The translations under genes and the position numbers were made by a program. From NCBI GenBank assembly GCA_964615315.1, contig CAZTMZ010000003.1, positions 45,565 through 69,564 on the forward strand: a stretch of 24,000 nt of DNA, written 5' to 3'. Positions 5,888 through 19,021 of this stretch are shown piece after piece. The stretch is from an uncultured Eubacteriales bacterium (GTDB lineage Bacteria; Bacillota; Clostridia; Oscillospirales; Acutalibacteraceae). Position 1 is the stretch's first letter; each line of letters starts with the position of its first letter. Under the pieces are notes generated by a model. It saw only the letters and a list, made by a program, of their open reading frames with translations. It did no database searches and was not told where the DNA came from.

Positions 5888-6345
5888 TAACTAATGCAAT
5901 TTCTAAGCCTAGGTGTAACCGGGCGATTGCATTAGTATAGTTTCCGTATACAGAAATGTGTATGAAAAATTACTCACTGAATTGCTGGAATCCCCTAAAG
6001 CCTATGACGCTACAACGCGAGTCGTAAGACCGAACGTGAATGCAGTGAAAACAGAAAAAAGACATAGGATGATATATGGTTAAATCCTAAGTATCGTAAC
6101 AATGGGCAATCAGCAGCCAAGCTCCCAATTATTGACAACACAATATGAATGTGCTATAATAGTTGTGGAAAAGGTTCAACGACTATCCCGCAAGGGAGTA
6201 GGACACAAGCGATTGGTGTCCGAAGTGGTGAGCACCTAAGTCTCTTATGAGATATGGCGAAGATATAGTCTGTGCTCTACTGAAAGGTAGAGGCGCGAAA
6301 GCGCAGCGAGGCGTAGCGAGCCGATAGGAAAACAACCTTTTCTTA
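5888..6345 (+). ncRNA. Group I intron ribozyme core (IA2-like, with P7.1/P7.2)
   Basis: P1: ggaaaU(5882-5887) pairs with Gtttcc(5940-5945). P1 carries a perfect 10-bp extension hairpin, ctaatgcaat(5891-5900)/attgcattag(5926-5935). P2: gtatac(5946-5951)/gtgtat(5958-5963). Core elements: P aattgctggaa (5980-5990), Q caatcagcagc (6107-6117), R gttcaacgactat (6174-6186), S aagatatagtct (6260-6271). P7 is gactat/atagtc. GNRA-capped hairpins follow: ccc-gcaa-ggg and gcgc-gaaa-gcgc. From memory, the 3' core closely resembles the phage T4 td intron (AACGACTATCCC...GAGTAGG...GAGATATAGTCTGCTC). Confidence 0.85.
6132..6160 (+). promoter_or_regulatory. Perfect sigma-A/sigma-70 consensus promoter inside the intron (P6 region), facing tnpB
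   Basis: TTGACA (6132-6137), a 17-nt spacer (6138-6154), then TATAAT (6155-6160). A TG at 6152-6153 gives an extended -10 (TGcTATAAT). The homologous ORF-less intron has only a short hairpin at this position. Confidence 0.6.
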
Positions 6346-6369
6346 TCATGAATGAGAGGAGGTGCAACG

Positions 6370-7509
6370 ATGATTAAATCTTTTATAGTAAGGTTATACC
6401 TAACGAGAATACAAGAGGAGCTGGCGTGGAAGCACGTTGGCGCTTGCAGGTTCATTTGGAATTATATGCTTGACTACCAGCAGAGGTTATACGAATCAGA
6501 AAAGAAGCATCTACCTGCCTTTAGTATGATAAAACTTCTAACTCCGTTGAAGAATGACGGAGAGCATGGCTGGCTGTACGACGTATCGAACTCTTCCTTG
6601 CAAACAATCTGCCGCGATTTGGACGGAGCCTATCAGTGTTTCTTTAAGAAGGCTGCCGGTTTTCCGAAGTTCAAGTCGCGTAAGAAGAGTAAATCGAATT
6701 TTCCTGTATGCTGCAATAGATTCTACTTTGCAGACGAGAACTTCGTACAGATACAGAAGCTCGGCAAGGTTCGTTTCAAAACGGACTTTGAGCTTCCGAT
6801 TGGACGCGAGCATAAGTTCCTGAACCCCAGAATTTCCTACGTTAATGGGAAATGGCTACTGTCTTTTAGCATGGAGTGCGAGAACCAAGCGCCTGTATTG
6901 ACAGACAAGCCCATGGGTATAGATTTAGGTATTAAGGATTTAGCAGTGGCAGAATTTGACGGAAGGCCCATTGTCTTTCATAACATCAACAAGTCGAAGC
7001 GTATGCGGCAGCTCAAGCAGAGGCAGAAGCACTTGCAGAGAAGTATCTCCCGCAAGTACGAAGCGAATCGCAAGGGCAACCAGTATGTGAAGACGAAAAA
7101 CATTGAAAGGCAGGAGGAACAACTCCGCAAGCTCTATTCTCGAATCACGAACATCCGAACAAACTACATCCACCAAACCACACACGTTTTGGTTTCTCTC
7201 CTGCCTTGTCGAGTCGTCATGGAAGACTTAAACGTACAAAGCATGATGAAGAACCGACATCTGAGCAAGGCAATTCAGGAGCAGGGGTTCTATGAATTCA
7301 TCCGCCAAATGCAGTACAAGTGCGAGTGGAACGGTATCGAGTTCGTTCAGGTTTACAGGTTTTATCCGAGCAGCAAGACATGTTCCAAATGCGGCAACGT
7401 CAAGCGGAACCTGAAGCTGTCGGACAGAACGTATCATTGTGATTCGTGCGGAGCAGTAATTGACCGAGATTACAACGCTGCCATTAACCTTAGCAGATAC
7501 GTAGTCTAA
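6370..7509 (+). CDS. tnpB: TnpB RNA-guided DNA endonuclease (379 aa)
   Basis: RBS aggagg lies 7 nt before ATG 6370; the track start at 6352 is unlikely. The N-terminus MIKSFIVRLYLTRIQEE..CRFIWNYML is typical of TnpB. RuvC-I GIDLGIKD, RuvC-II VVMEDLNV, zinc ribbon CSKCG...CDSCG, and RuvC-III IDRDYNAAINL are all intact. Confidence 0.92.
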   Translation: MIKSFIVRLYLTRIQEELAWKHVGACRFIWNYMLDYQQRLYESEKKHLPAFSMIKLLTPLKNDGEHGWLYDVSNSSLQTICRDLDGAYQCFFKKAAGFPKFKSRKKSKSNFPVCCNRFYFADENFVQIQKLGKVRFKTDFELPIGREHKFLNPRISYVNGKWLLSFSMECENQAPVLTDKPMGIDLGIKDLAVAEFDGRPIVFHNINKSKRMRQLKQRQKHLQRSISRKYEANRKGNQYVKTKNIERQEEQLRKLYSRITNIRTNYIHQTTHVLVSLLPCRVVMEDLNVQSMMKNRHLSKAIQEQGFYEFIRQMQYKCEWNGIEFVQVYRFYPSSKTCSKCGNVKRNLKLSDRTYHCDSCGAVIDRDYNAAINLSRYVV

Positions 7510-7633
7510 TTGAAGAGACTATGGTCTTGAGGTGTTGTTGCACCTTTAAGCTGTGGAGAGCCATACAAACTTGAGTAGTTACGACGAAAGAGGGCTTGAT
7601 GAAGCAGTAAGTTTAGTTTGCTAAACACAACAG
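7510..7633 (+). ncRNA. IStron 3' structured region: candidate omega-RNA scaffold ending at the 3' splice site
   Basis: Hairpins: agac/gtct, aggtg/cacct and gtttag-tttg-ctaaac. They lie just before ...acaacaG7633. The position relative to the tnpB stop matches the TnpB omega-RNA paradigm. The scaffold probably starts inside the tnpB 3' end. Confidence 0.55.
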
Positions 7634-7819
7634 AAAAATAGTTCCGTAAAAGCATTGCAAATATTGTTAATTGGAAATGGCTATTCTTGTGGCTCTTATG
7701 GCGCAGACGGAGATTTCGGTACGGGAACGTATAATGCGGTTGTAAAATTTCAAAAAGCAAAAAAGATTGGCGCAGATGGAATTGTTGGAGCACAAACATG
7801 GGAGAAGCTATTAAAGTAA
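7634..7819 (+). CDS. Endolysin exon 2: PG_binding_1 cell-wall-binding domain
   Basis: Translation: KNSSVKALQILLIGNGYSCGSYGADGDFGTGTYNAVVKFQKAKKIGADGIVGAQTWEKLLK*. This fits the PG_binding_1 pattern (V..LQ.LL...GY.....DG.FG..T..AV..FQ......DG.VG..T...L). It has no start codon or RBS of its own. The frame is closed upstream at TAA 7622-7624. Confidence 0.85.
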   Translation, partial: KNSSVKALQILLIGNGYSCGSYGADGDFGTGTYNAVVKFQKAKKIGADGIVGAQTWEKLLK

Positions 7820-8853: not shown

Positions 8854-10275
8854 ATGGGTAAGAAGTTAACTAAAGAAGAATTTATTAAAAGGGTTTATGA
8901 AAAAAATGAGCATGTAAGAAATGGAGAACTTGAGATTCGTGGAGAGTTCGTTGGGACAAAGGAACCAATAGAATGTTTTTGTACAATCCACCATGTTTTA
9001 TGGAACCCTAGACCGGACGATTTGTGGAAAGGAATTGGGTGTAGACAATGTGGGAGTGTAAAAACAGCGGACAAAAGGCGTGTAGATGCGGACACAATTA
9101 ATAGACGATTAGAACAAATAAATAATGGCGTTAAAATGATTGGTAAATGCTTCGGCGTTAGAGCGGAAACTGAGTTTCAATGTAGTTTGAATCATACATG
9201 GAGAGATCGACCTATTGATATTTTGAACGGCGTAGGATGCCCATATTGTAGCGGACATCGTGTTTGGGTTGGATTTAATGATTTATGGACAACACGTCCT
9301 GATGTTGCGAAGTTGTTATTGAATTCTAACGATGGCTATAAATATACATACGGTTCTAATAAAAAATTAGAATTTATTTGTCCAATTTGTGGGTCTATAA
9401 TAATAAAGTCCGCAAAAGAAGTCTGTCAAAATGGATTAGTTTGTCAACTTTGCTCTGATGGTATTTCATATCCAAATAAGCTTGGCAGGTTGTTATTAAC
9501 ACAGCTCAATGTAGAGAATATAAGATATGAGTGGAGCCCGGATTGGATCCAATCTTATTCTTACGATAATTATTTTGAATATTGTGGAAAAGCATATATT
9601 TTAGAGTTTGACGGTGGACTTGGGCATGGTAAAAAGAAATATAAATCAAATGAGCGCGATGTTATTGGCAAAGAAAGAGATATTTATAAAGATCGTTTGG
9701 CAGCAGATCATAATATAAAAGTTATAAGAGTCGATTGCGATTACACTGGAAAATGTAATGATCGTTTTATGTATATAAAAAATAATATTTTACAAAGTGA
9801 ATTGTGTAGCATTTTTGATTTGTCTTGTGTTGATTGGGAATATTGTGATTGTAATGCGCAAAAAACATTGATAAAACAAGTTGCGGATTTATACAATCAA
9901 GGTTTAAGCGTATCAGAAATACAAAAGATTGTAGGTTATTATATTAATACTATCCGTAAATGGTTAACTACGGCATCTAAATATAATTTATGTAATTATA
10001 ATAGAAAAGAGTCTAAAAGAAGAACAACTGATTCTATATACCGTTATATTAATCAATATTCTACAAATGGAGAATTTGTGAGAACATATAAATGTGTAGC
10101 TGAAGCCAGTGAAATTACTGGAGTTGATGATTCTTCGATTTATGGATGTTGTAAACATTATTCTGGGCATAAAACCGCAGGTGGATTTTTATGGTTTTAT
10201 GCTACAGATCTATATCAACCAGATAAATCAAAGATTATTGAATTAGCAATACAAAATGAATGTAAGGAGGTGTAA
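8854..10275 (+). CDS. Free-standing protein resembling a homing endonuclease: Zn-ribbon repeats + Vsr/PD-(D/E)XK-like core + HTH/NUMOD1-like DNA-binding C-terminus
   Basis: RBS ggagg is present. There are three Cys/His ribbon modules (CTIHH..CRQCG; CSLNH..CPYCSG; CPICG..CQLCS). The core motif YILEFDGGLGHG...ERD..KD is typical of Vsr/DUF559-type nucleases. An HTH follows (GLSVSEIQKIVGYYINTIRKWL). The C-terminus reads INQYSTNGEFVRTYKCVAEASEITGVDDSSIYGCCKH..KTAGGFLWFY, typical of phage homing-endonuclease DNA-binding repeats. The gene looks visibly AT-rich. Confidence 0.55.
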   Translation: MGKKLTKEEFIKRVYEKNEHVRNGELEIRGEFVGTKEPIECFCTIHHVLWNPRPDDLWKGIGCRQCGSVKTADKRRVDADTINRRLEQINNGVKMIGKCFGVRAETEFQCSLNHTWRDRPIDILNGVGCPYCSGHRVWVGFNDLWTTRPDVAKLLLNSNDGYKYTYGSNKKLEFICPICGSIIIKSAKEVCQNGLVCQLCSDGISYPNKLGRLLLTQLNVENIRYEWSPDWIQSYSYDNYFEYCGKAYILEFDGGLGHGKKKYKSNERDVIGKERDIYKDRLAADHNIKVIRVDCDYTGKCNDRFMYIKNNILQSELCSIFDLSCVDWEYCDCNAQKTLIKQVADLYNQGLSVSEIQKIVGYYINTIRKWLTTASKYNLCNYNRKESKRRTTDSIYRYINQYSTNGEFVRTYKCVAEASEITGVDDSSIYGCCKHYSGHKTAGGFLWFYATDLYQPDKSKIIELAIQNECKEV

Positions 10276-10278
10276 CCG

Positions 10279-12250
10279 ATGGAAATTATAAACGCTTTTA
10301 AAACTGTAACTGAACAAATTAAATCTTGGGTTGACGAGAATAAAGTGCAAAAAGTAAGCGGGAAAGGACTTTCTACAAATGATTATACCAATATAGATCG
10401 CCAAAAAGTAGAAGAAATGCCAAATGACTTAATGATTCTTAATGGAAAATTATATCTTGCACAGGATGGAACCCCAATTGACAGTTCTGCGGTACAGCTT
10501 CCTGAAGGTGGTGGCGGAGGCGGTGGTTCGAGTGCTACGATTACATTAAAGAATTTGCTAGATTCGTCCATCATAACATCTGCCGTTGGAAATTCAGTAG
10601 TTTTAAAATTCAGTTTTGCATCGTCTGAGGCAGATAGTGGTATGGCTTATATTTATGTCGGCGGTGTTCTGAAGGGTACGGCAGCTATAATTGCCGGAAG
10701 CAATACGTTGGATATTTCAGAATATGTTGGAGAAGGTTCCAATGAAGTTAAATTAACATGTATGGACGTGTATAGCAATAGTAAAAGCTTGGCGTATACT
10801 GTCAACATGGTTTCGTTGAGAGTGACATCTACTTTTGATGATTCTCAAGTTTATTCGGGCGATATTAGTGTTCGTTATATTGTTTATGGTGCAGTAGAAA
10901 AAACTATGCATTTTGTGGTCGATGACACAGATACCACTGTAACAGTAAGTGAAACTGGAAAACAACGAACACAGGTTTTACCAGCAATGTCGCATGGAAC
11001 ACATTTATTAAAAATTTATGCAACGGCTACAATTAATGGTGTTGAAGTTAAAAGCAACGAATTATTGTTTGATATATTGTGTGCCGTGGAAGGTGCGACT
11101 ACTCCGATGATTTCTTCTGCCTGTAACGTTATATCTGTAACCCAAGGAGAATTGATTAATATTCCATTTGTGGTTTATGATCCTTCTAATATGGAAACTG
11201 AAATTACTCTTACTATATCGCAGAATAACGAAATATACTTCACTTCTATGAGAACCGTAGATCGTACAAAACAAACTTGGAGTATAAGAAATTATCCTGT
11301 TGGCGAAGTAACTTTTACTATTACATATGGTGCTATTAGTAAAAGTCATATGATAACTGTTGCAGAGAATAATATTGATGTTTCTGTAAAAACAACGGAT
11401 TTAGAATTCCAACTTAGGGCGGCAGGTAAATCCAACGAAGATACGGATCGCGACACTTGGACTAGCGGCGACGTAACTACTATGTTCGAATACTTAAACT
11501 GGGAATCTACTGGTTGGGTTGCGGACGATGACGGTGATGTTGCTTTAAGGTTGTCTGGTGATGCAAAGGCAACAATTAATTTTATGCCGTTTAAATCAGA
11601 TGCTCGTCAGACAGGTAAAACAATTGAAATGGAATTTGCCATTCGTGATGTTAATAATCGCGATGCCGTTGCGATTTCTTGCTTGAATGGCGGTATTGGT
11701 TTTACTGTTACTGCAGATACGTTTGTAATGACAAGCGAACAGACGAAAATTAGTTGCAATTATACTGATGAAGAAAAGATAAGAATTGCTGTTGTAATTG
11801 AGCCACGTAGTGAATACCGTATGATGAGCGTTTATTTGAATGGTGTTTTATCTGGTGTTGAACAGTACCCCGAAACAGATAACTTTCAACAAACGTCTCC
11901 TACGAATATCGTTATTGGTTCTGAATATTGTTCTGTTGACTTATATACCATCCGTTCTTATGATGTAGCATTAACCGCAGATGAAATTAAAGACAATTAT
12001 ATTGCCGATATTACTGACATTAGTGAGAAAGCAGCGTTATATTCGGACAATGATATCTATGATGCGTTTGGTAATTTAAGCTTTTCTGCACTGAAGGATA
12101 AAATACCTGTGTTGGTTATTACGGGCACTTTGCCAACATATAAGGGAGATAAGAGAAAAGTAACTATTGCGTATACAGATCCACTAAATCCCAGTCTGGA
12201 TTTTGAGGATAGCGCAACAATTGATGTACAAGGCACATCAAGTCAGTATT
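10279..12250 (+). CDS. Giant tail/receptor-binding protein, exon 1
   Basis: RBS aaggagg is present. Fibre motif KVSGKGLSTNDYTNIDRQKV, a Gly7 linker and beta-rich domains. The exon ends ...IDVQGTSSQY + t at U12250. The track ORF runs on 35 nt into the intron, to TGA at 12283-12285. Confidence 0.8.
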
Positions 12251-12620
12251 CGAAATTTGGATACCGTATTGAGAAATCAGTATGAAAAAATACTCGTTTA
12301 ATTGCTGGAACACCCTAAAGACAAATAAACTACAACGTAAAGATGAAATATGCTTAAGCGTGAATGTTATGAAAATAGAAAAAAATATTTGTATGAGAGC
12401 GAGGTTAAATCCCCTGCTCTTTTTTAATGGGCAATCAGCAGCGAAGCCGTGAATAACGGAACGTTCAACGACTATTCTGAAAGGAAGTAGGCTGTAAGCG
12501 ATTGACAGTCGAAATGGCGAGGACCAGAAATGGTTAAGATATAGTCTATACTCAATGGAAACATTGAGAAGGAGAAATCCTTAGCACAGGAGTAGCGTCC
12601 TATGTTTAATACAATAGATG
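12251..12620 (+). ncRNA. ORF-less group I intron (370 nt), homologous to the IStron ribozyme
   Basis: P1: gtatUc(12246-12251)/ggatac(12259-12264), with U12250-G12260 at the splice site. P2: gtattg(12266-12271)/cagtat(12278-12283). Core elements: P aattgctggaa (12300-12310), Q caatcagcagc (12432-12442), R gttcaacgactat (12463-12475), S aagatatagtc (12536-12546). GAAA-capped P9 hairpins: ctcaatg-gaaa-cattgag and aagga-gaaa-tcctt. The terminal G12620 is the only G that both lies after the in-frame TAG (12593-12595) and restores the frame. Confidence 0.85.
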
Positions 12621-15600
12621 TTCGTAAAAACTGGAAAATTAAAACTTCAGAATATCATACATTAGATTTAGATCAAGTTCCTACAAAAATATTTTGCTGG
12701 AAGGCTGACTATGCTGAGGCGACTGGTAGCCACAACACGAGTACGGCTAATTATGCTCATATATTATATGGAGATGCTAAAACTCCGCCGCAGGAAGCCG
12801 ATTCTCGTGTAAGAACTACTGTTTATGGAAGACCAAGTGTAATTTTTCATAAAGCAGATAGTAGTTCGGACCCCGTATTTTACGGAAAGGCAAATGCAAA
12901 TATAGATAAAGGAGCACTTGAATGCTTTGGTTTTACTGAAGATTATTCAGATGCCCAGTGTGTAGAATTTTGCAATAACGTTTCAGAGGCATGTTTATTC
13001 CACAAAGAGATATCAGATGATTGGTCTGATGACTTTGAATTTCGTCAGCCCGATGGATACACGGATATCTCTGACTTCAAAATTGTACACGATTGGACAG
13101 TTAGCACATGGCAAGATGGGGCAACTGGAACTGCATTGAATGGATCGTATACAGGCATTGATGGTACTGTTTATACTAATGATACTGCGGCATATAGATT
13201 AGCAAAATTCAAGAAAGAATTTACAGATTATTATAATTTGGATTTTTGTTTAGTTTATTATGTGTTGACGTTTGTGCTAATGTGCGTAGACCAACGTGCG
13301 AAGAATATGTTTTTAACAACTTGGGACAAGGTTCATTGGGAGCCGTGGTTTTATGATAATGATACAATTTTAGGCATTAATAACGAAGGTAGATTGGTCT
13401 TCAGTCCTTTTTTGGAGGATGACGATCAGCTTGATGGAGCAAATGTTTTTAATGGAGCCACAAGTGCCCTTTGGGTGAATTTTAGAGAATCTTTCCCTAA
13501 TGAGATTCAGGCTTTGTATGCTTCTTGGCGTAGCGAAGGATTGTTAAGTTATGATCAGATAATTGAATATTTTATAACTCGCCAAACTGACAAATGGTCT
13601 ATTTCAGTTTACAGTGAAGATATAGATTTTAAGTATGTCTCTTTGCTGAGAGATGATGATGATGGTACTTACTTATATCAAGTAAGAGGTACTGGTGAAG
13701 AACATTTAAGATACTTTACTAAAGCTAGACTTAATTACTTAGACTCTAAGTGGTGCTGCGGTGATTATCCAAGTGATTACGTTTCGTTGCGTATTTATAC
13801 TCCAATGGATGAAAATAATAATCCACTAACTAATTTGCCAGTAGCTGCCAATCCAGATATTACGATAACACCTTATGAAAACACCTATGCAGGCGTTCAA
13901 TTTGGCGCAGGTAGTAACATTAATCAATATAAGGCGTATCAAAATGTTCCAATTACGCTTAAGTGGACAATGAATGGTTCTCCTAATGACCTTGAGACTT
14001 CGGTATTCCCGGCTTCTCAGATTAGTTCTTTGGGTGATTTGTCTCCTTTGTATTGCGGCACGATTAATGTTAGCAAAGCAGAGAAGTTAACTGAATTAAT
14101 TGTTGGCAATCAAACAAAAGGTTATTCCAATAACAATCTAACTGAATTGGCAGTTGGTGCCAATAACCTATTACAAAAAGTAGATATTTGTAACTGTCCT
14201 AATCTAGTTAAACCATTAGCGCTTTCTAACTGTCCAAATATTCAAGAAATTTATGCAATAGGTTCTGGTATTACTGGTCTTGAGTTGCCAACCTCTGGTT
14301 ATCTAAAGAAGGTGTATTTGCCAAATACTTTAACCAACCTAACAGTAACCAACCAACAATATATTGAAGAATTCGTTCTCGAAGGTTATGACAATTTGAC
14401 TACTCTTCGTATTGAAGATACTGTTAATATTCCTGTCGAAGACATAATGCTTAATGCGCCGAATTTGAATCGTATTCGTCTTATTGACGTTCAATGGGAA
14501 GCAGAGTCTGAGGCAGCGCTTGTTCAAACAATTGAAAAATTTAAGTCTTGTTTGGGTTTGGATGCTAACGGCAATAATACTGAGAACGCCATTGTTACCG
14601 GTAAAGTGCATGTCGCAGAGAAAGTCTCCAATGAAGTTTTCGGTGATGTTTATAATAGTTTCCCAGATCTTGTTATAGATGACGGCAGTGAAGAAATCTA
14701 TATTCTTAACTACAAAGACCGTGATGGTAAAATATTATATTCTACTAGAGTCGCAGAAGGGGCGAATGCGATAGATCCGATTGCACAGGGTTATATTGAG
14801 ACCCCAGACCCAATTATAACAGACACATATAGATATGAATTCGTCGCTTGGAGTACATTGCCAACCAACATTCAGAGGCATTATGTAATTATTGCGCAAT
14901 ACCACACTAAGTTTGCTATTAAATTTTATAATGAAGAAACATTATATTATACTCAGTGGTCCGTACAAGGCGACCCAGCTATCGACCCTGTTGTATCCGG
15001 CGCAATCACAGCTCCAACCAAGTCTGGCACGTCCGATATAAGCTATAAGTTCTCTGGTTGGGACAACCTGCCAACGAACGTTCAATCCACAGTTAACGTA
15101 TATGCTCAATACGATACCTATTGGGCTGTAAGATTCTGGAACGACAGTGTATTGTATTTAACAGAGTGGATCATCGAAGGTGGCAAACCCGTTAATCCTA
15201 GCACTTATTCCGAGGATTATACCAATCCAACTCGTACAAGTACGGCGCAATATGACTATCACTTCTCTAGTTGGGATGGTGACTTTGATACCGAAGTAAC
15301 ATCAACAAGAGAATTCTACGCCGTATATTCCAGTACAATTCGTAGATATAATGTCTACTTCTACAATGATAACGAACTGCTATACACCGTAGAAAATGTC
15401 CAATATGGTAGCAGTGCGTCTTATAGTGGTAGCACACCAACAAAACTCGGCGTTGAAGATCCAGACGAATACGTATTTAAGGGCTGGCTGCCTGCGCCTG
15501 AAAATATCACTGGCGAAACTAAATGTTATGCGCTGTATAAATTTACTGGTTACCTATTTGGTAAGTTAGGCAAGACTGATGATGACGATCAAGGCTATGG

Positions 15601-16321
15601 AACAGTTGATAGTCCAAACTGGGATGCGATCAATGCCTATTGGACAACTATTGCTGCTGATGTCTCATCCTACCAAAATGGTATTTTGGCAGAAGATGAT
15701 TTTACTGCAAAATATCAAATTGGTGGCCGAATGATTGTTCCAATTAACCTTTCGGATGGTACATCTACTATGGCAGATGTTGAAATTATTGCACACAACC
15801 ATGATAATCTAGCGGACGGCTCTGGTAAGGCGGCTTTAACATTCTTCTGTAAAGATCTTCCGCAGGTTCAGCGTGCTATGAATGAGTCTACTGTACTTAC
15901 TGGTTATAAAGATAGTATAATGCGTACTTTTGTCAATGAAGAATTGTTTGGCGTTCTTCCCAATGAACTAACGTTGGTAATCAAACCCGTAAAGAAAATT
16001 TCTGATGGTGGTGCGCAAAATCAGACACTAGTAACTACGACGGATTATTGTTGGATTGCGTCATATGATGAAGTTGGTTTTACTTCTGGTGGCTCAAATA
16101 TTTCTGGGCAGGGAGAGTTGTATGATGAAATATTTTCTAACAATAACAGTCGTAAAAAGTATATAACTGATAGCACCGATACTGGTGGATGGTGGCTGCG
16201 CACGTCAGTTCGTTCTACAAATTTAAGCAGCACTATGTTTTACAGAGTTCAGAAGTCGGGTGCGGCATATACGGATATTCAGACGAATCAATTTTATGTT
16301 GCATTTGGTTTTTGTATCTAA
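12621..16321 (+). CDS. Giant tail/receptor-binding protein, exon 2: CotH-like domain, LRR region, four Listeria/Bacteroides-type repeats, C-terminal WWLR domain
   Basis: The splice junction reads GTSSQY-F-RKNWKIK, which fits a CotH-type motif. A CotH-like core is present (DQRAKNMFLTTWDKVHWEPWFYDNDTILG). LRRs span about 14040-14480 (LTELIVGN..LTELAVGAN..CPNLVKPLALSNCPNIQEIY). Repeats span 14699-15538. The C-terminus contains GGWWLRTS. The spliced product is 1890 aa. Confidence 0.8.
14699..15538 (+). repeat. Four tandem coding repeats of about 70 aa (Flg_new / Listeria-Bacteroides repeat-like)
   Basis: The units start YILNYKD, FAIKFYN, WAVRFWN and YNVYFYN. Each ends in Y.F.(A/G/S)W....V......YA.Y (EFVAWSTLP..IIAQY; YKFSGWDNLP..VYAQY; YHFSSWDGDF..FYAVY; YVFKGWLPAP..CYALY). 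Confidence 0.7.
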
Positions 16322-16418: not shown

Positions 16419-17021
16419 ATGACTGGTTTTGAAGAATTTTTAACTCTATTTGGAGGCATTACGGTTTCTCAAATTGTCGTTTTTGTGTTTGCGGTTATCT
16501 TTTTATTCTCTGTCTATAAAGAGATTAAAAAGTACGTCAACGTAAAAATTAAAGAACAGCAAACAAAAGCAGATGAAGAAAAGAATAACAAAAAGAAACT
16601 TGAAGAAGCGTGGGTCGCAACACAAAAGTATCCAGAGTATCGTAAAAAAAGTTTAGAAATACAGGAACTTCTTGAGGGCGAAATCCAAGAAGTAAAAAAC
16701 ACAGAAGAGACGGTAACAGAAGAATTAAAGAAACTGTCTTTACGTCTTGAAAAGATGGAGGAAGACACGAAACGCCGTGAGCGTAATCGTCTCAGAGATC
16801 TGCTGCTGAATCATTATCGTCATTATACAAACAAAGAACTAAATCCGTCACAATCATGGACGAGCATGGAAGCGGAGACATTCTGGGCGTTATTTAGCGA
16901 TTATGAGGATGCAGGTGGAGATGGTTACATGCACACTACGGTTCAGCCAGAAATGGAACGTTTACTAGTTGTGAACGTAGGTGAACTACCACAGACCGTA
17001 ACGGCCTGTGGCTTCCATTAA
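16419..17021 (+). CDS. Hypothetical membrane-anchored coiled-coil protein; its 3' end runs into the IS left end
   Basis: RBS gggagg is present. N-terminal TM segment ITVSQIVVFVFAVIFLFSV, followed by a charged coiled-coil. The last roughly 18 codons (from about 16966) and the stop codon lie inside the IS200/IS605 left-end hairpin structure. Confidence 0.6.
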   Translation: MTGFEEFLTLFGGITVSQIVVFVFAVIFLFSVYKEIKKYVNVKIKEQQTKADEEKNNKKKLEEAWVATQKYPEYRKKSLEIQELLEGEIQEVKNTEETVTEELKKLSLRLEKMEEDTKRRERNRLRDLLLNHYRHYTNKELNPSQSWTSMEAETFWALFSDYEDAGGDGYMHTTVQPEMERLLVVNVGELPQTVTACGFH

Positions 17022-17031
17022 ATAGTTCACC
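16980..17031 (+). repeat. IS left-end (LE) subterminal hairpin
   Basis: Outer 9-bp stem: ggtgaacta(16980-16988)/tagttcacc(17023-17031). Inner hairpin: ccacag(16989-16994)...taa...ctgtgg(17006-17011), with an inner GC stem ccg/cgg. It has the same architecture and the same CCACA/TGTGG core as the RE hairpin. Confidence 0.7.
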
Positions 17032-17268
17032 AGACTAAGTATTCAGAAACGAATACTACGATGATTACATTATGACACCCTTGGTTGACGCAACAGACCA
17101 CTGCTCTGTCGTATATCTTTAAGTTGGGTTGGAATAAGCAAAGCCCTGTGAGATATACATGTAAGTGTATTCATCATTGTCGAGTTGAGGACGGAACAAT
17201 TGTATGGTAACAGTACAATGTAGTACGCATTACCTGCCATTAGGCAGAGTATTTATAAGGAGAGGCTT
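17032..17268 (+). ncRNA. Candidate IscB omega-RNA scaffold (may extend 5' through the LE to about 16966)
   Basis: A long non-coding leader lies immediately 5' of iscB, which is the canonical omega-RNA location. Hairpins: agtattc-agaaac-gaatact (17038-17057), attgta-tggtaacag-tacaat, and ctgcc-atta-ggcag just before the RBS. No ORF is present. Confidence 0.5.
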
Positions 17269-18543
17269 ATGGTTTATGTAATTTCACAAGATAACAAACC
17301 ACTAATGCCTTGTAGTAATGCGATAGCAAGATTGTTATTAAAACAAGATAAGGCAAAAGTTAAGAAACGCAAGCCATTTACAATTAAATTGACTTATGAA
17401 ACAACAAATTATACACAAGAACTAACTTTAGGTGTTGATACTGGAAGTGGAACAATTGGCACTGCCGTTAGTAAAGATAATGGAGACATTGTTTACATGT
17501 CGGAGGTTATTGTCAGAAATGATATTACTGATAAGATGACACAAAGAGCAAAGTATCGTAGAAACAGACGAAATCGTAAAACTCGATATAGAAAGGCAAG
17601 ATGGTTAAATCGTGCCAATTCTATTAAAAATGACAGATTCAGTCCTACAATGCAAAGTAAACTTCATAGTCATGTAAAGGAAATAGAGTATATTAAATCC
17701 ATTCTTCCGATTACAAAAATGGTATTTGAAACTGGTCAGTTTGACACTCACCTTATGAAGAATCCATGTCTTGCAAATCCTAATGTAAGACATTGGGGAT
17801 ATCAAAAAGGTACAAATTATGGATTTGAAAACACAAAAACGATGGTTCTTAATCGAGACAATTATACTTGTCAACATTGCAAAGGCAAACACAAAGACAG
17901 TAAATTAGAAGTTCATCATATCGTATTTCGTAGTCAAGGTGGTTCAGATGAAGAAAGCAATTTAATCACACTTTGTCATACTTGTCATAAGAATTTACAT
18001 GACAGAAAAATTAAATTAAATCTTAAAGGCAAAACGAAAGGCACACTTAAATATGCCACACAAATGAATTCTATTAGAAAACAACTTTTCAGATTATATC
18101 CTGATGCGATTGAAACATTTGGATATGTAACAAAAACAAATCGTTTACAGTTAGGTGTAGATAAAGAACACTATTATGATGCTTGTACTATTGCGGCACA
18201 AGGGAATAGCTTTACTGTGAAAAGCAATCTCTATAAGAAAAAGTCTATTCCTGATGGTGATTTTCAGAAAACAAAAGGCATTCGTTCCGAGCAACCTATT
18301 ACAACTGGAAAGATTTGTGGATTCAGAAAGTTTGATAAGGTTCGCTACTTTGGAAATGATTATTTTATTAAAGGAAGAATGTCAATTGGATATGCAATTC
18401 TTATGGATATAGATGGTAACAAAATTGATTTTTCAGCAATGCCTAAAGGTTACAAAACACCAAAGATGGTAAATCTAAAAAGATTGGAGGCTCGGTCAAC
18501 ATGGATGATTACAACCGTGGTGGTCACTCCAAATACAGCATGA
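17269..18543 (+). CDS. iscB: IscB RNA-guided nuclease (424 aa; Cas9-ancestor type, RuvC with inserted HNH)
   Basis: PLMP motif at residues 11-14 (QDNKPLMPCS). RuvC-I LGVDTGSGTIG (D57). Arg-rich bridge helix KYRRNRRNRKTRYRKARW. RuvC-II MVFETGQFD. HNH CQHCKGK..LEVHHIVFRSQGGSDEESNLITLCHTCHKNLH. RuvC-III EHYYDACTIA. A C-terminal domain of about 100 aa follows. Confidence 0.92.
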   Translation: MVYVISQDNKPLMPCSNAIARLLLKQDKAKVKKRKPFTIKLTYETTNYTQELTLGVDTGSGTIGTAVSKDNGDIVYMSEVIVRNDITDKMTQRAKYRRNRRNRKTRYRKARWLNRANSIKNDRFSPTMQSKLHSHVKEIEYIKSILPITKMVFETGQFDTHLMKNPCLANPNVRHWGYQKGTNYGFENTKTMVLNRDNYTCQHCKGKHKDSKLEVHHIVFRSQGGSDEESNLITLCHTCHKNLHDRKIKLNLKGKTKGTLKYATQMNSIRKQLFRLYPDAIETFGYVTKTNRLQLGVDKEHYYDACTIAAQGNSFTVKSNLYKKKSIPDGDFQKTKGIRSEQPITTGKICGFRKFDKVRYFGNDYFIKGRMSIGYAILMDIDGNKIDFSAMPKGYKTPKMVNLKRLEARSTWMITTVVVTPNTA

Positions 18544-18905
18544 AAGTGCATCTGATATTTGTAACCAAATATCGCAAGAAAATATTCAAATCAGATAAGC
18601 GAGCAGATGATGTCAAACAGTCTTTGTATGACACAGTTAAGAAATATGGCTACAAAATCATACAAATGGAAACTAACAAAGACCATGTACATATATTACT
18701 TGAGTATAGTCCAAAGGTGTCTGTTGCAGACATTGTAAAACAACTCAAGCAGTATAGTACATACCAGATGTGGAAATATCATGAAGAATATCTATCCAAA
18801 CAGTATTGGAAACACAAAATACTTTGGTTTGACGGATATTTTGCTTGCAGTATAGGGCAAGTTTCTCAAGAAATTATTGAGAAGTGTATTCAAAACCAAG
18901 GTTAA
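18501..18905 (+). CDS. tnpA: IS200/IS605 Y1 (HUH) transposase TnpA, with Cys at the catalytic Tyr position
   Basis: RBS ggagg lies 10 nt before the ATG. The gene overlaps the iscB 3' end by 43 nt. Motifs: VHLIFVTKYRKK, and HUH in NKDHVHILLEY. The C-terminal helix ...SQEIIEKCIQNQG aligns to IS608 TnpA ...LNVVKQYIENQ, where Y127 is the nucleophile. Here the codon is TGT. Confidence 0.9.
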   Translation: MDDYNRGGHSKYSMKVHLIFVTKYRKKIFKSDKRADDVKQSLYDTVKKYGYKIIQMETNKDHVHILLEYSPKVSVADIVKQLKQYSTYQMWKYHEEYLSKQYWKHKILWFDGYFACSIGQVSQEIIEKCIQNQG

Positions 18906-18915
18906 AAATAACGAA

Positions 18916-18957
18916 CGCCGTGTATCCACACGCCTAAAGGCATGTGGTTTTACGGCG
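18916..18957 (+). repeat. IS right-end (RE) subterminal hairpin
   Basis: Outer stem: cgccgt(18916-18921)/acggcg(18952-18957). Inner hairpin: ccaca(18926-18930)...taaa...tgtgg(18943-18947), with an inner GC stem gcc/ggc. Confidence 0.7.
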
Positions 18958-19021
18958 GATAACTTATAAATAATCTACAATGTAAAACATGTTTGATTAG
19001 TAATGGAGGTTGAAAAAAGAT

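Follow-up and report, generated by a model that had tools for sequence, protein, structure and literature searches.

An ISC2Y-type IscB element in a gut phage with cysteine in place of the catalytic tyrosine of its TnpA transposase

The window analysed here is a stretch of 24,000 nucleotides (contig CAZTMZ010000003.1, positions 45,565–69,564 of the forward strand) from the genome of an uncultured Eubacteriales bacterium (GCA_964615315.1), a metagenome-assembled genome of 1.76 Mb in 114 contigs that is 74.8% complete. At the 3' end of a phage gene, the window carries an element of the IS200/IS605 superfamily of the ISC2Y type, which consists of an omega RNA, the nuclease gene iscB and the transposase gene tnpA (also called iscA). 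The transposase, TnpA, has a cysteine codon in the column of the catalytic tyrosine. The features of the element and of its insertion site, in window coordinates, are as follows.

16419–17021, + strand: phage open reading frame (ORF) with an interrupted 3' end; its last 13 codons and stop are derived from the element
16965–16980, + strand: candidate guide segment of the omega RNA (CTAGTTGTGAACGTAG), the 5' flank of the scaffold, directly before position 1 of the HEARO model
16981–18965, + strand: whole element of 1985 bp (omega RNA, iscB, tnpA), delimited by independent insertions and an empty site
16981–17197, + strand: HEARO / IscB omega RNA scaffold (Rfam RF02033)
16981–17030, both strands: subterminal two-tier hairpin of the omega RNA end (DNA fold; conserved in relatives)
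17269–18543, + strand: iscB, 424 aa, with its catalytic residues present (Pfam RRXRR and HNH)
18501–18905, + strand: tnpA (iscA), Y1 HUH transposase of 134 aa (Pfam Y1_Tnp and PDB alignments)
18885–18887, + strand: TGT (Cys129) in the catalytic tyrosine column, where the relatives all have TAT or TAC
18916–18957, both strands: subterminal two-tier hairpin of the tnpA end (DNA fold; conserved in 8 relatives)
18966–18970, + strand: ATAAA just outside the element (TTTAT on the - strand), the target motif and candidate transposon-adjacent motif (TAM)

The tnpA gene is preceded by a ribosome-binding site (GGAGG at 18486–18490, 10 nt before the ATG), and its product matches the Pfam family Y1_Tnp (PF01797) over the full length of the profile (positions 2–121 of 121; E = 4.1e-32, 111.3 bits, where the score cut-off is 23 bits). 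In a phmmer comparison with all PDB chains, residues 7–133 align to the TnpA of ISDra2, and EKCIQNQ is placed over IQKYIESQ with posterior probability at the top level. A check on this one column is provided by the mutant chain 2xo6, which differs from 2xm3 by F for Y exactly where the window TnpA has Cys129. A profile made from 25 members of the family gives the same correspondence, with column 129 equivalent to Y132 of ISDra2 and to Y127 of IS608 (VVKQYIENQ, last residue 131). The C-terminal helix (QVSQEIIEKCIQNQG) contains no further tyrosine, and Y113 of the GYF motif falls on the SYC/SCF strand of the solved structures, not on the catalytic column. The HUH motif is kept (H62-V-H64, over DHVH in ISDra2 and DHIH in IS608), as is Q133, which lies four residues past the nucleophile column and aligns with the last Q of YIENQ and YIESQ. 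The chemistry of IS608 and ISDra2 depends on the HUH metal site together with a tyrosine nucleophile, and the active sites are assembled in trans within a dimer. The single catalytic tyrosine of the Y1 HUH transposases is replaced by Cys129 in the window TnpA, which is a homologue of the Y1_Tnp family but is not predicted to be an active enzyme. An initial annotation, made from the letters of the window, had described a cysteine codon in the catalytic column that arose by a single TAT>TGT change, with the HUH histidines and the glutamine retained. The codon itself, with its G at position 18886, and the PDB and profile alignments agree with that description, and no other tyrosine, that of GYFA included, is placed at the catalytic position by the profile alignment.

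The cysteine is not a trait of the family. The best 120 homologues of TnpA, all from gut metagenomes and at 73–95% identity, have tyrosine in every case that reaches the C-terminus, and among the 112 full-length close homologues Tyr129 is invariant (112/112, with cysteine in 0/112). The cluster formed with the window TnpA at 90% identity has 12 members, and the other 11 all carry tyrosine. The exact TnpA sequence is on record for one contig alone, the window's own (108,431 bp); a search for encoding contigs found no second contig with the exact protein. At the nucleotide level, a degenerate pattern for the cysteine form (CARGARATHATHGARARRTGYATHCARAAYCARGG, covering QEIIE[KR]-C-IQNQG) had 0 matches in the viral, genome and metagenome collections, and the tyrosine-form control, which uses TAY, recovered 2 viral, 6 genome and 12 metagenome loci (20 in total); these denominators are small, and the pattern search adds modestly to the protein count of 112/112. 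Cys129 thus appears from these comparisons to be a singleton that is private to this lineage. Other lesions of catalytic residues do occur among the 112 relatives, namely H64D (P0051), H64R (P0059) and Q133H (P0019), or ~3% of the set, and several close homologues are frameshifted or truncated at the C-terminus. Decay is common in this TnpA family.

The close relatives of TnpA are found in metagenome-assembled genomes of Blautia, Lachnospira, Erysipelotrichaceae, Oscillospiraceae and Eubacteriales, and the many distinct flanks in which they occur indicate that this TnpA family is mobile. Two contigs of one Eubacteriales metagenome-assembled genome (L057 and L058) each carry a tyrosine-form copy, an indication that in some hosts these elements are active and present in several copies.

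In all other respects the element is canonical. Similarity to independent insertions (L006, L014, L020 and L021) begins exactly at 16981 and stops near 18970. The insertions used for this comparison lie in a widespread gut phage (L006–L011), in the chromosomes of Clostridia (L014 and L020) and elsewhere (L013, L019 and L021). The omega RNA scaffold matches the full length of RF02033 (model positions 1–211 of 211; 99.5 bits, E = 1.9e-20, where the gathering score is 83) and ends 71 nt before the start of iscB. By the IscB model of Meers et al., we infer that the 16 nt directly upstream of the scaffold (CTAGTTGTGAACGTAG) serve as the guide of the omega RNA; in the empty site this flank would adjoin ATAAA. 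The IscB protein matches RRXRR (4.4e-54) and HNH (1.2e-11) in Pfam, and its alignment to OgeuIscB (7utn/7xht; 4.8e-41) places D57, E154, H216/H217, H301 and D304 in the RuvC and HNH motifs. The ratio of non-synonymous to synonymous substitution rates (dN/dS) of iscB against its relatives is 0.06–0.07. The iscB and tnpA genes are codirectional and overlap by 43 nt, and the overlap is identical in relatives. In synonymous divergence (dS) the element is a mosaic. Its tnpA is near those of L012, L019, L020 and L021 (dS 0.15–0.19), whereas its iscB is distant from those of L012, L020 and L021, the ones compared (dS 0.83–0.95), which suggests recombination between element lineages near the boundary of iscB and tnpA.

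Both ends of the element form subterminal two-tier hairpins. At the omega RNA end the outer stem is GTGAACTA/TAGTTCAC and the inner stem CCACAGACC-GTAAC-GGCCTGTGG (16989–17011); folded as DNA, this region has z-scores of -5.0 (+ strand) and -5.8 (- strand). At the tnpA end the outer stem is CGCCGT/ACGGCG and the inner stem CCACACGCC-TAAA-GGCATGTGG (18926–18947), with z-scores of -3.2 (+) and -4.1 (-). At each end 0 of 200 shuffled sequences folded as well, and a CCACA...TGTGG core is common to the two hairpins. On the - strand both pair fully, if G-T wobbles are included, which would fit the - strand as the one on which TnpA acts. The 3' arm of the inner hairpin at the left end has a private T>C change at 17005 (GGTCTGTGG in four relatives, GGCCTGTGG here); the affected position is mismatched (A-C) in the + strand and in the omega RNA, and pairs as G-T in the - strand. 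The omega RNA segment, which is much more diverged, has 29 private changes in all, this one included. Taken together, iscB, the omega RNA and both ends look intact.

The element interrupts the 3' end of the phage ORF at 16419–17021, in which the last two codons and the stop have been replaced by 13 element-coded codons and a new stop. A protein search with this upstream ORF identified an uninterrupted allele (L037), whose homologue (P0134, 94% identity, 189 aa) ends in VVNEDR*. The joined flanks of the window, ...GTGAACGTAG/ATAAATAATCTAC..., would read VVNVDK*, and they align to L037 without gaps in one register only (18 of 26 positions matching, against at most 11 when the register is shifted by 1 to 6 positions in either direction). 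The insertion lies between ...GTGAACGTAG and ATAAATAA... with no target-site duplication, and the donor joint expected from excision would be ...GAACGTAG/ATAAATAA.... The motif ATAAA follows the element in seven distinct right flanks, that of the window and six others; this recurrence in different flanks makes ATAAA the target motif and a candidate TAM. In the empty site L037, ATAGA stands at this position. Searches for close relatives of the phage gave no megablast match to phage records, the exact flank pattern had 0 matches in viral contigs, and comparison of the left flank with 200 genomes of the same family returned one 42-nt match at chance level and nothing else.

With respect to its own gene, TnpA shows the constraint typical of the family. 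Compared with seven relatives, tnpA has seven private nucleotide changes, four synonymous and three non-synonymous (D59N, S110F and Y129C), and its dN/dS against relatives is 0.06–0.21. The usual purifying selection of the family combined with one clearly disabling change points to a recent event. Our preferred reading, which we regard as highly probable, is that the window holds one copy of a known ISC2Y-type element whose TnpA lost its tyrosine by a recent, private point mutation, as part of ordinary decay. In this account the element inserted into the genome of a large gut phage, precisely and without duplication, before ATAAA at the 3' terminus of a phage gene, and a single A>G transition at 18886 in this copy would have changed the sole nucleophile tyrosine of TnpA to cysteine. 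With its HUH metal site and glutamine retained, the protein is probably still able to fold and to bind the hairpins at the ends. Judged by the mechanism of IS608 and ISDra2, however, it could not form the covalent 5'-phosphotyrosine link, and would be expected to perform neither excision nor integration; this is also what the initial annotation had anticipated for a transposase lacking its nucleophile. A TnpA with Cys129 would accordingly be unable to cleave or join DNA, and this copy unable to excise or transpose by itself. No complementing second TnpA was found in the source assembly, which at 74.8% completeness contains one Y1_Tnp match and one IscB match.

The age of the lesion bears on whether tnpA might instead be an old pseudogene, in which selection has long been relaxed in this phage lineage and Y129C is one symptom among others. 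All three privately changed residues (59, 110 and 129) do fall in columns where conservation among the 134-aa homologues is 95% or more. A reading of these three changes as the mark of long decay was nevertheless rejected, because three or more rare changes at such columns are found in 21 of the 112 relatives, and because intact relatives also show D59N (three of them) and a hydrophobic residue at position 110 (leucine in a 132-aa subgroup). The gene also has no frameshift, premature stop or truncation, its dN/dS against the closest relatives is 0.09–0.21, and only 4 of 121 residues separate TnpA from P0126, the closest protein, three of these four being D59N, S110F and Y129C. Normal constraint together with a single disabling change argues for a recent lesion and against both an old pseudogene and a long-standing domesticated form, and we give the former hardly any credence. 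An intact ORF with a good ribosome-binding site, and with the HUH motif and glutamine kept, would also fit a cysteine form that had been selected for a function, as a catalytically dead stabilizer or regulator that binds the hairpins, as a dominant-negative partner, or as an enzyme with a cysteine nucleophile. A cleavage-dead C129 TnpA bound to the hairpins could block excision, including that by wild-type TnpA through mixed dimers, or Cys129 could act as a thiol nucleophile. If excision were blocked in this way, the IscB/omega RNA cassette would be locked in the phage and would spread only by RNA-guided homing between co-infecting phages. Domestication predicts, however, that orthologues at a fixed locus would share the loss of the tyrosine, and the cysteine was seen in 0/112 homologues and in none of the three collections; moreover, tnpA still lies within a complete mobile element with both ends. 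We know of no HUH enzyme with a cysteine nucleophile. A selected function of either kind is very improbable.

An artefact is the main rival explanation for a variant that occurs in this one record only, in a fragmented metagenome-assembled genome of 114 contigs and 74.8% completeness, and in a tnpA that otherwise looks fully functional and constrained. The G at 18886 would then have come from an error in sequencing or in the consensus, or from a minority allele taken up in assembly, the real phage population would carry TAT (tyrosine), and the element would be active and autonomous. Yet six other private substitutions lie in the same 405-nt gene, a real lineage divergence of ~1.7%, and because of these a seventh real substitution is far likelier a priori than a one-base consensus error of short reads. 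Lesions of catalytic residues in ~3% of the close relatives, in independent assemblies, further indicate that such lesions are normal for the family. An artefact is therefore unlikely, although it retains some weight. Several points do count against a recent, genuine loss of the tyrosine. The loss of activity is deduced from homology; a consensus error or minority variant is possible in a metagenome-assembled genome; the single-copy status of the element depends on an assembly that is 74.8% complete; and with only seven private changes the ratio of synonymous to non-synonymous ones cannot formally separate a recent loss from slightly relaxed selection.

If the tyrosine was indeed lost recently, one point mutation would have made an autonomous element non-autonomous, as about 98% of iscB elements are, and the copy would persist passively, carried along with the phage genome. 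Without excision there would be no donor joint for IscB to rescue, and therefore no rescue by IscB would be needed for persistence. The suggestion in the initial annotation that such an element could persist only through IscB-mediated homing or retention, or through domestication, is thus unsupported, given the singleton cysteine and the usual purifying selection on tnpA. Its alternative of a very recent inactivating mutation fits the singleton status, the dN/dS values and the small number of private changes, and the sequencing error that it also mentioned is less likely. Its description of the element as possibly immobilized holds insofar as the copy is predicted not to mobilize itself, but is too strong as a general statement. 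Because no damage is apparent in IscB, the omega RNA or the ends, both mobilization in trans and homing by IscB may be possible: a related TnpA met in the host could still move the element, and IscB with its omega RNA could cut the target CTAGTTGTGAACGTAG with its adjoining ATAAA in an insertion-free allele carried by a co-infecting phage, so that the element would be copied in by recombination.

By itself the finding is of little consequence. It is real but ordinary, and concerns a single copy, in decay, of a known type of element. The locus is nevertheless a clean natural example of an autonomous IscB-TnpA element that seems to have turned non-autonomous by one point mutation. Its practical value is that the limits of the element, the empty site, a candidate guide and a candidate TAM (ATAAA) are all defined, which would make it a ready substrate for the study of IscB-driven homing between phages without self-excision.

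Decay of another kind is found in the widespread gut phage. Four loci (L004, L005, L009 and L011) represent the same phage and the same site as L006–L008 and L010, and are deletion forms of the insertion. All four keep an intact TnpA (P0009, 100% identical) and the tnpA-side end. In L009, 35 nt of the omega RNA end and the 3' quarter of iscB are retained, and in L004, L005 and L011 that end is gone, together with the omega RNA and the greater part of iscB. Decay therefore also proceeds in the reverse direction, with the nuclease lost and the transposase kept. In a further comparison, the TnpA of L020 and L021/L022 is identical (P0123) and their flanks at the omega RNA end agree over at least 20 nt, but the flanks past ATAAA differ; this could reflect a rearrangement or a second event beside the element.

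The genes that neighbour the element are phage genes and include large ORFs resembling tail fibres (phrog_14959 and phrog_24896). Homologues of the interrupted ORF follow a tail-fibre-like gene in phage contigs, and are found in IMG/VR contigs of 93–128 kb and in metagenome contigs of ~170 kb. In L038, a related phage whose version of the interrupted ORF is 74% identical, a gene resembling GIY-YIG/NUMOD1 homing endonucleases (3256–4239 of L038) stands immediately after the homologue of ORF 16419. In its sister L039, an endolysin comes directly after the homologue. The intergenic position after homologues of ORF 16419 attracts different selfish elements. Further features of this type lie upstream in the window.

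5940–6292: group I intron (RF00028, 84 bits), at the start of an IStron-like unit (5940–7650)
6352–7509: TnpB (HTH_OrfB_IS605, OrfB_IS605, Cas12f1-like TNB), in the IStron-like unit
7550–7610: RAGATH-18 RNA (61 bits), in the IStron-like unit
8854–10275: ORF of 473 aa with matches to HNH / homing-endonuclease PHROGs and a NUMOD1 motif
12239–12568: second group I intron (74.6 bits), between ORFs 10279–12285 and 12602–16321

The IStron-like unit, composed of the intron, TnpB and the RAGATH-18 RNA, has no transposase of its own. The ORF at 8854–10275 is a free-standing gene resembling homing endonucleases, in the same stretch rich in selfish elements. The ORFs on either side of the second intron match consecutive parts of phrog_14959, and one large tail-protein gene therefore appears to be split by the intron at 12239–12568.

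In its organization the element has the layout of the ISC2Y group, in which iscB is followed by a codirectional, overlapping Y1 gene (iscA/tnpA) with overlaps of 12–82 nt (Kapitonov, Makarova and Koonin 2016, PMC4810608). The order and strand of iscB and tnpA are the same in the window, and their 43-nt overlap falls within the published range. The ends of ISC elements have subterminal imperfect hairpins, and insertion occurs without duplication upstream of short AT-rich targets of the ATAA, ATCA and ATGA types (PMC4810608). Correspondingly, the window element has subterminal hairpins at both ends and no terminal inverted repeats, and is inserted without duplication directly upstream of ATAAA. 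The catalytic residues of IscA are stated to be conserved in that study, whereas the window transposase has cysteine for the catalytic tyrosine. The window element further differs in lying in a phage structural-gene region and in being single-copy in its assembly. In contrast to an autonomous ISC2Y element, it is missing the transposase nucleophile, and its own assembly holds one Y1_Tnp match.

A tnpA gene is found near ~1.5% of iscB genes, and the orientation of IscB elements tends to be that of the gene upstream (Meers et al. 2023, bioRxiv 10.1101/2023.03.14.532601). In the same study an AT-rich 5-nt motif is used by both transposase and nuclease, and the TAM of ISGst2 is TTTAT, the reverse complement of the ATAAA flank in the window. 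Like the ISGst elements of G. stearothermophilus, the window element is co-oriented with its upstream gene and has an omega RNA that lies upstream of iscB, spans the transposon end and would take its guide from the flank. However, the G. stearothermophilus IscB element lacks its own tnpA and depends on one TnpA in trans, whereas in the window tnpA is present and its nucleophile has been lost.

Domesticated, tyrosine-less TnpA proteins of the host-regulator type are distinguished by a loss of the tyrosine that orthologues share, in a gene that has a fixed position and lies outside any mobile element; the window TnpA has instead a singleton cysteine, and is encoded within such an element. The TnpA proteins of IS608 (H. 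pylori; 2a6m and 2vhg) and ISDra2 (D. radiodurans; 2xm3 and the Y132F mutant 2xo6) belong to the same fold family (profile E = 1e-17 and 8e-18, respectively), and the HUH motif, the glutamine and the C-terminal helix match those of the window TnpA residue by residue. Identity to these proteins is roughly 30–35%, and their nucleophiles, Y127 and Y132, correspond to cysteine in the window. Laboratory Y-to-F mutants of TnpA serve to trap complexes, and the Cys129 TnpA of this gut phage may be regarded as their natural counterpart.

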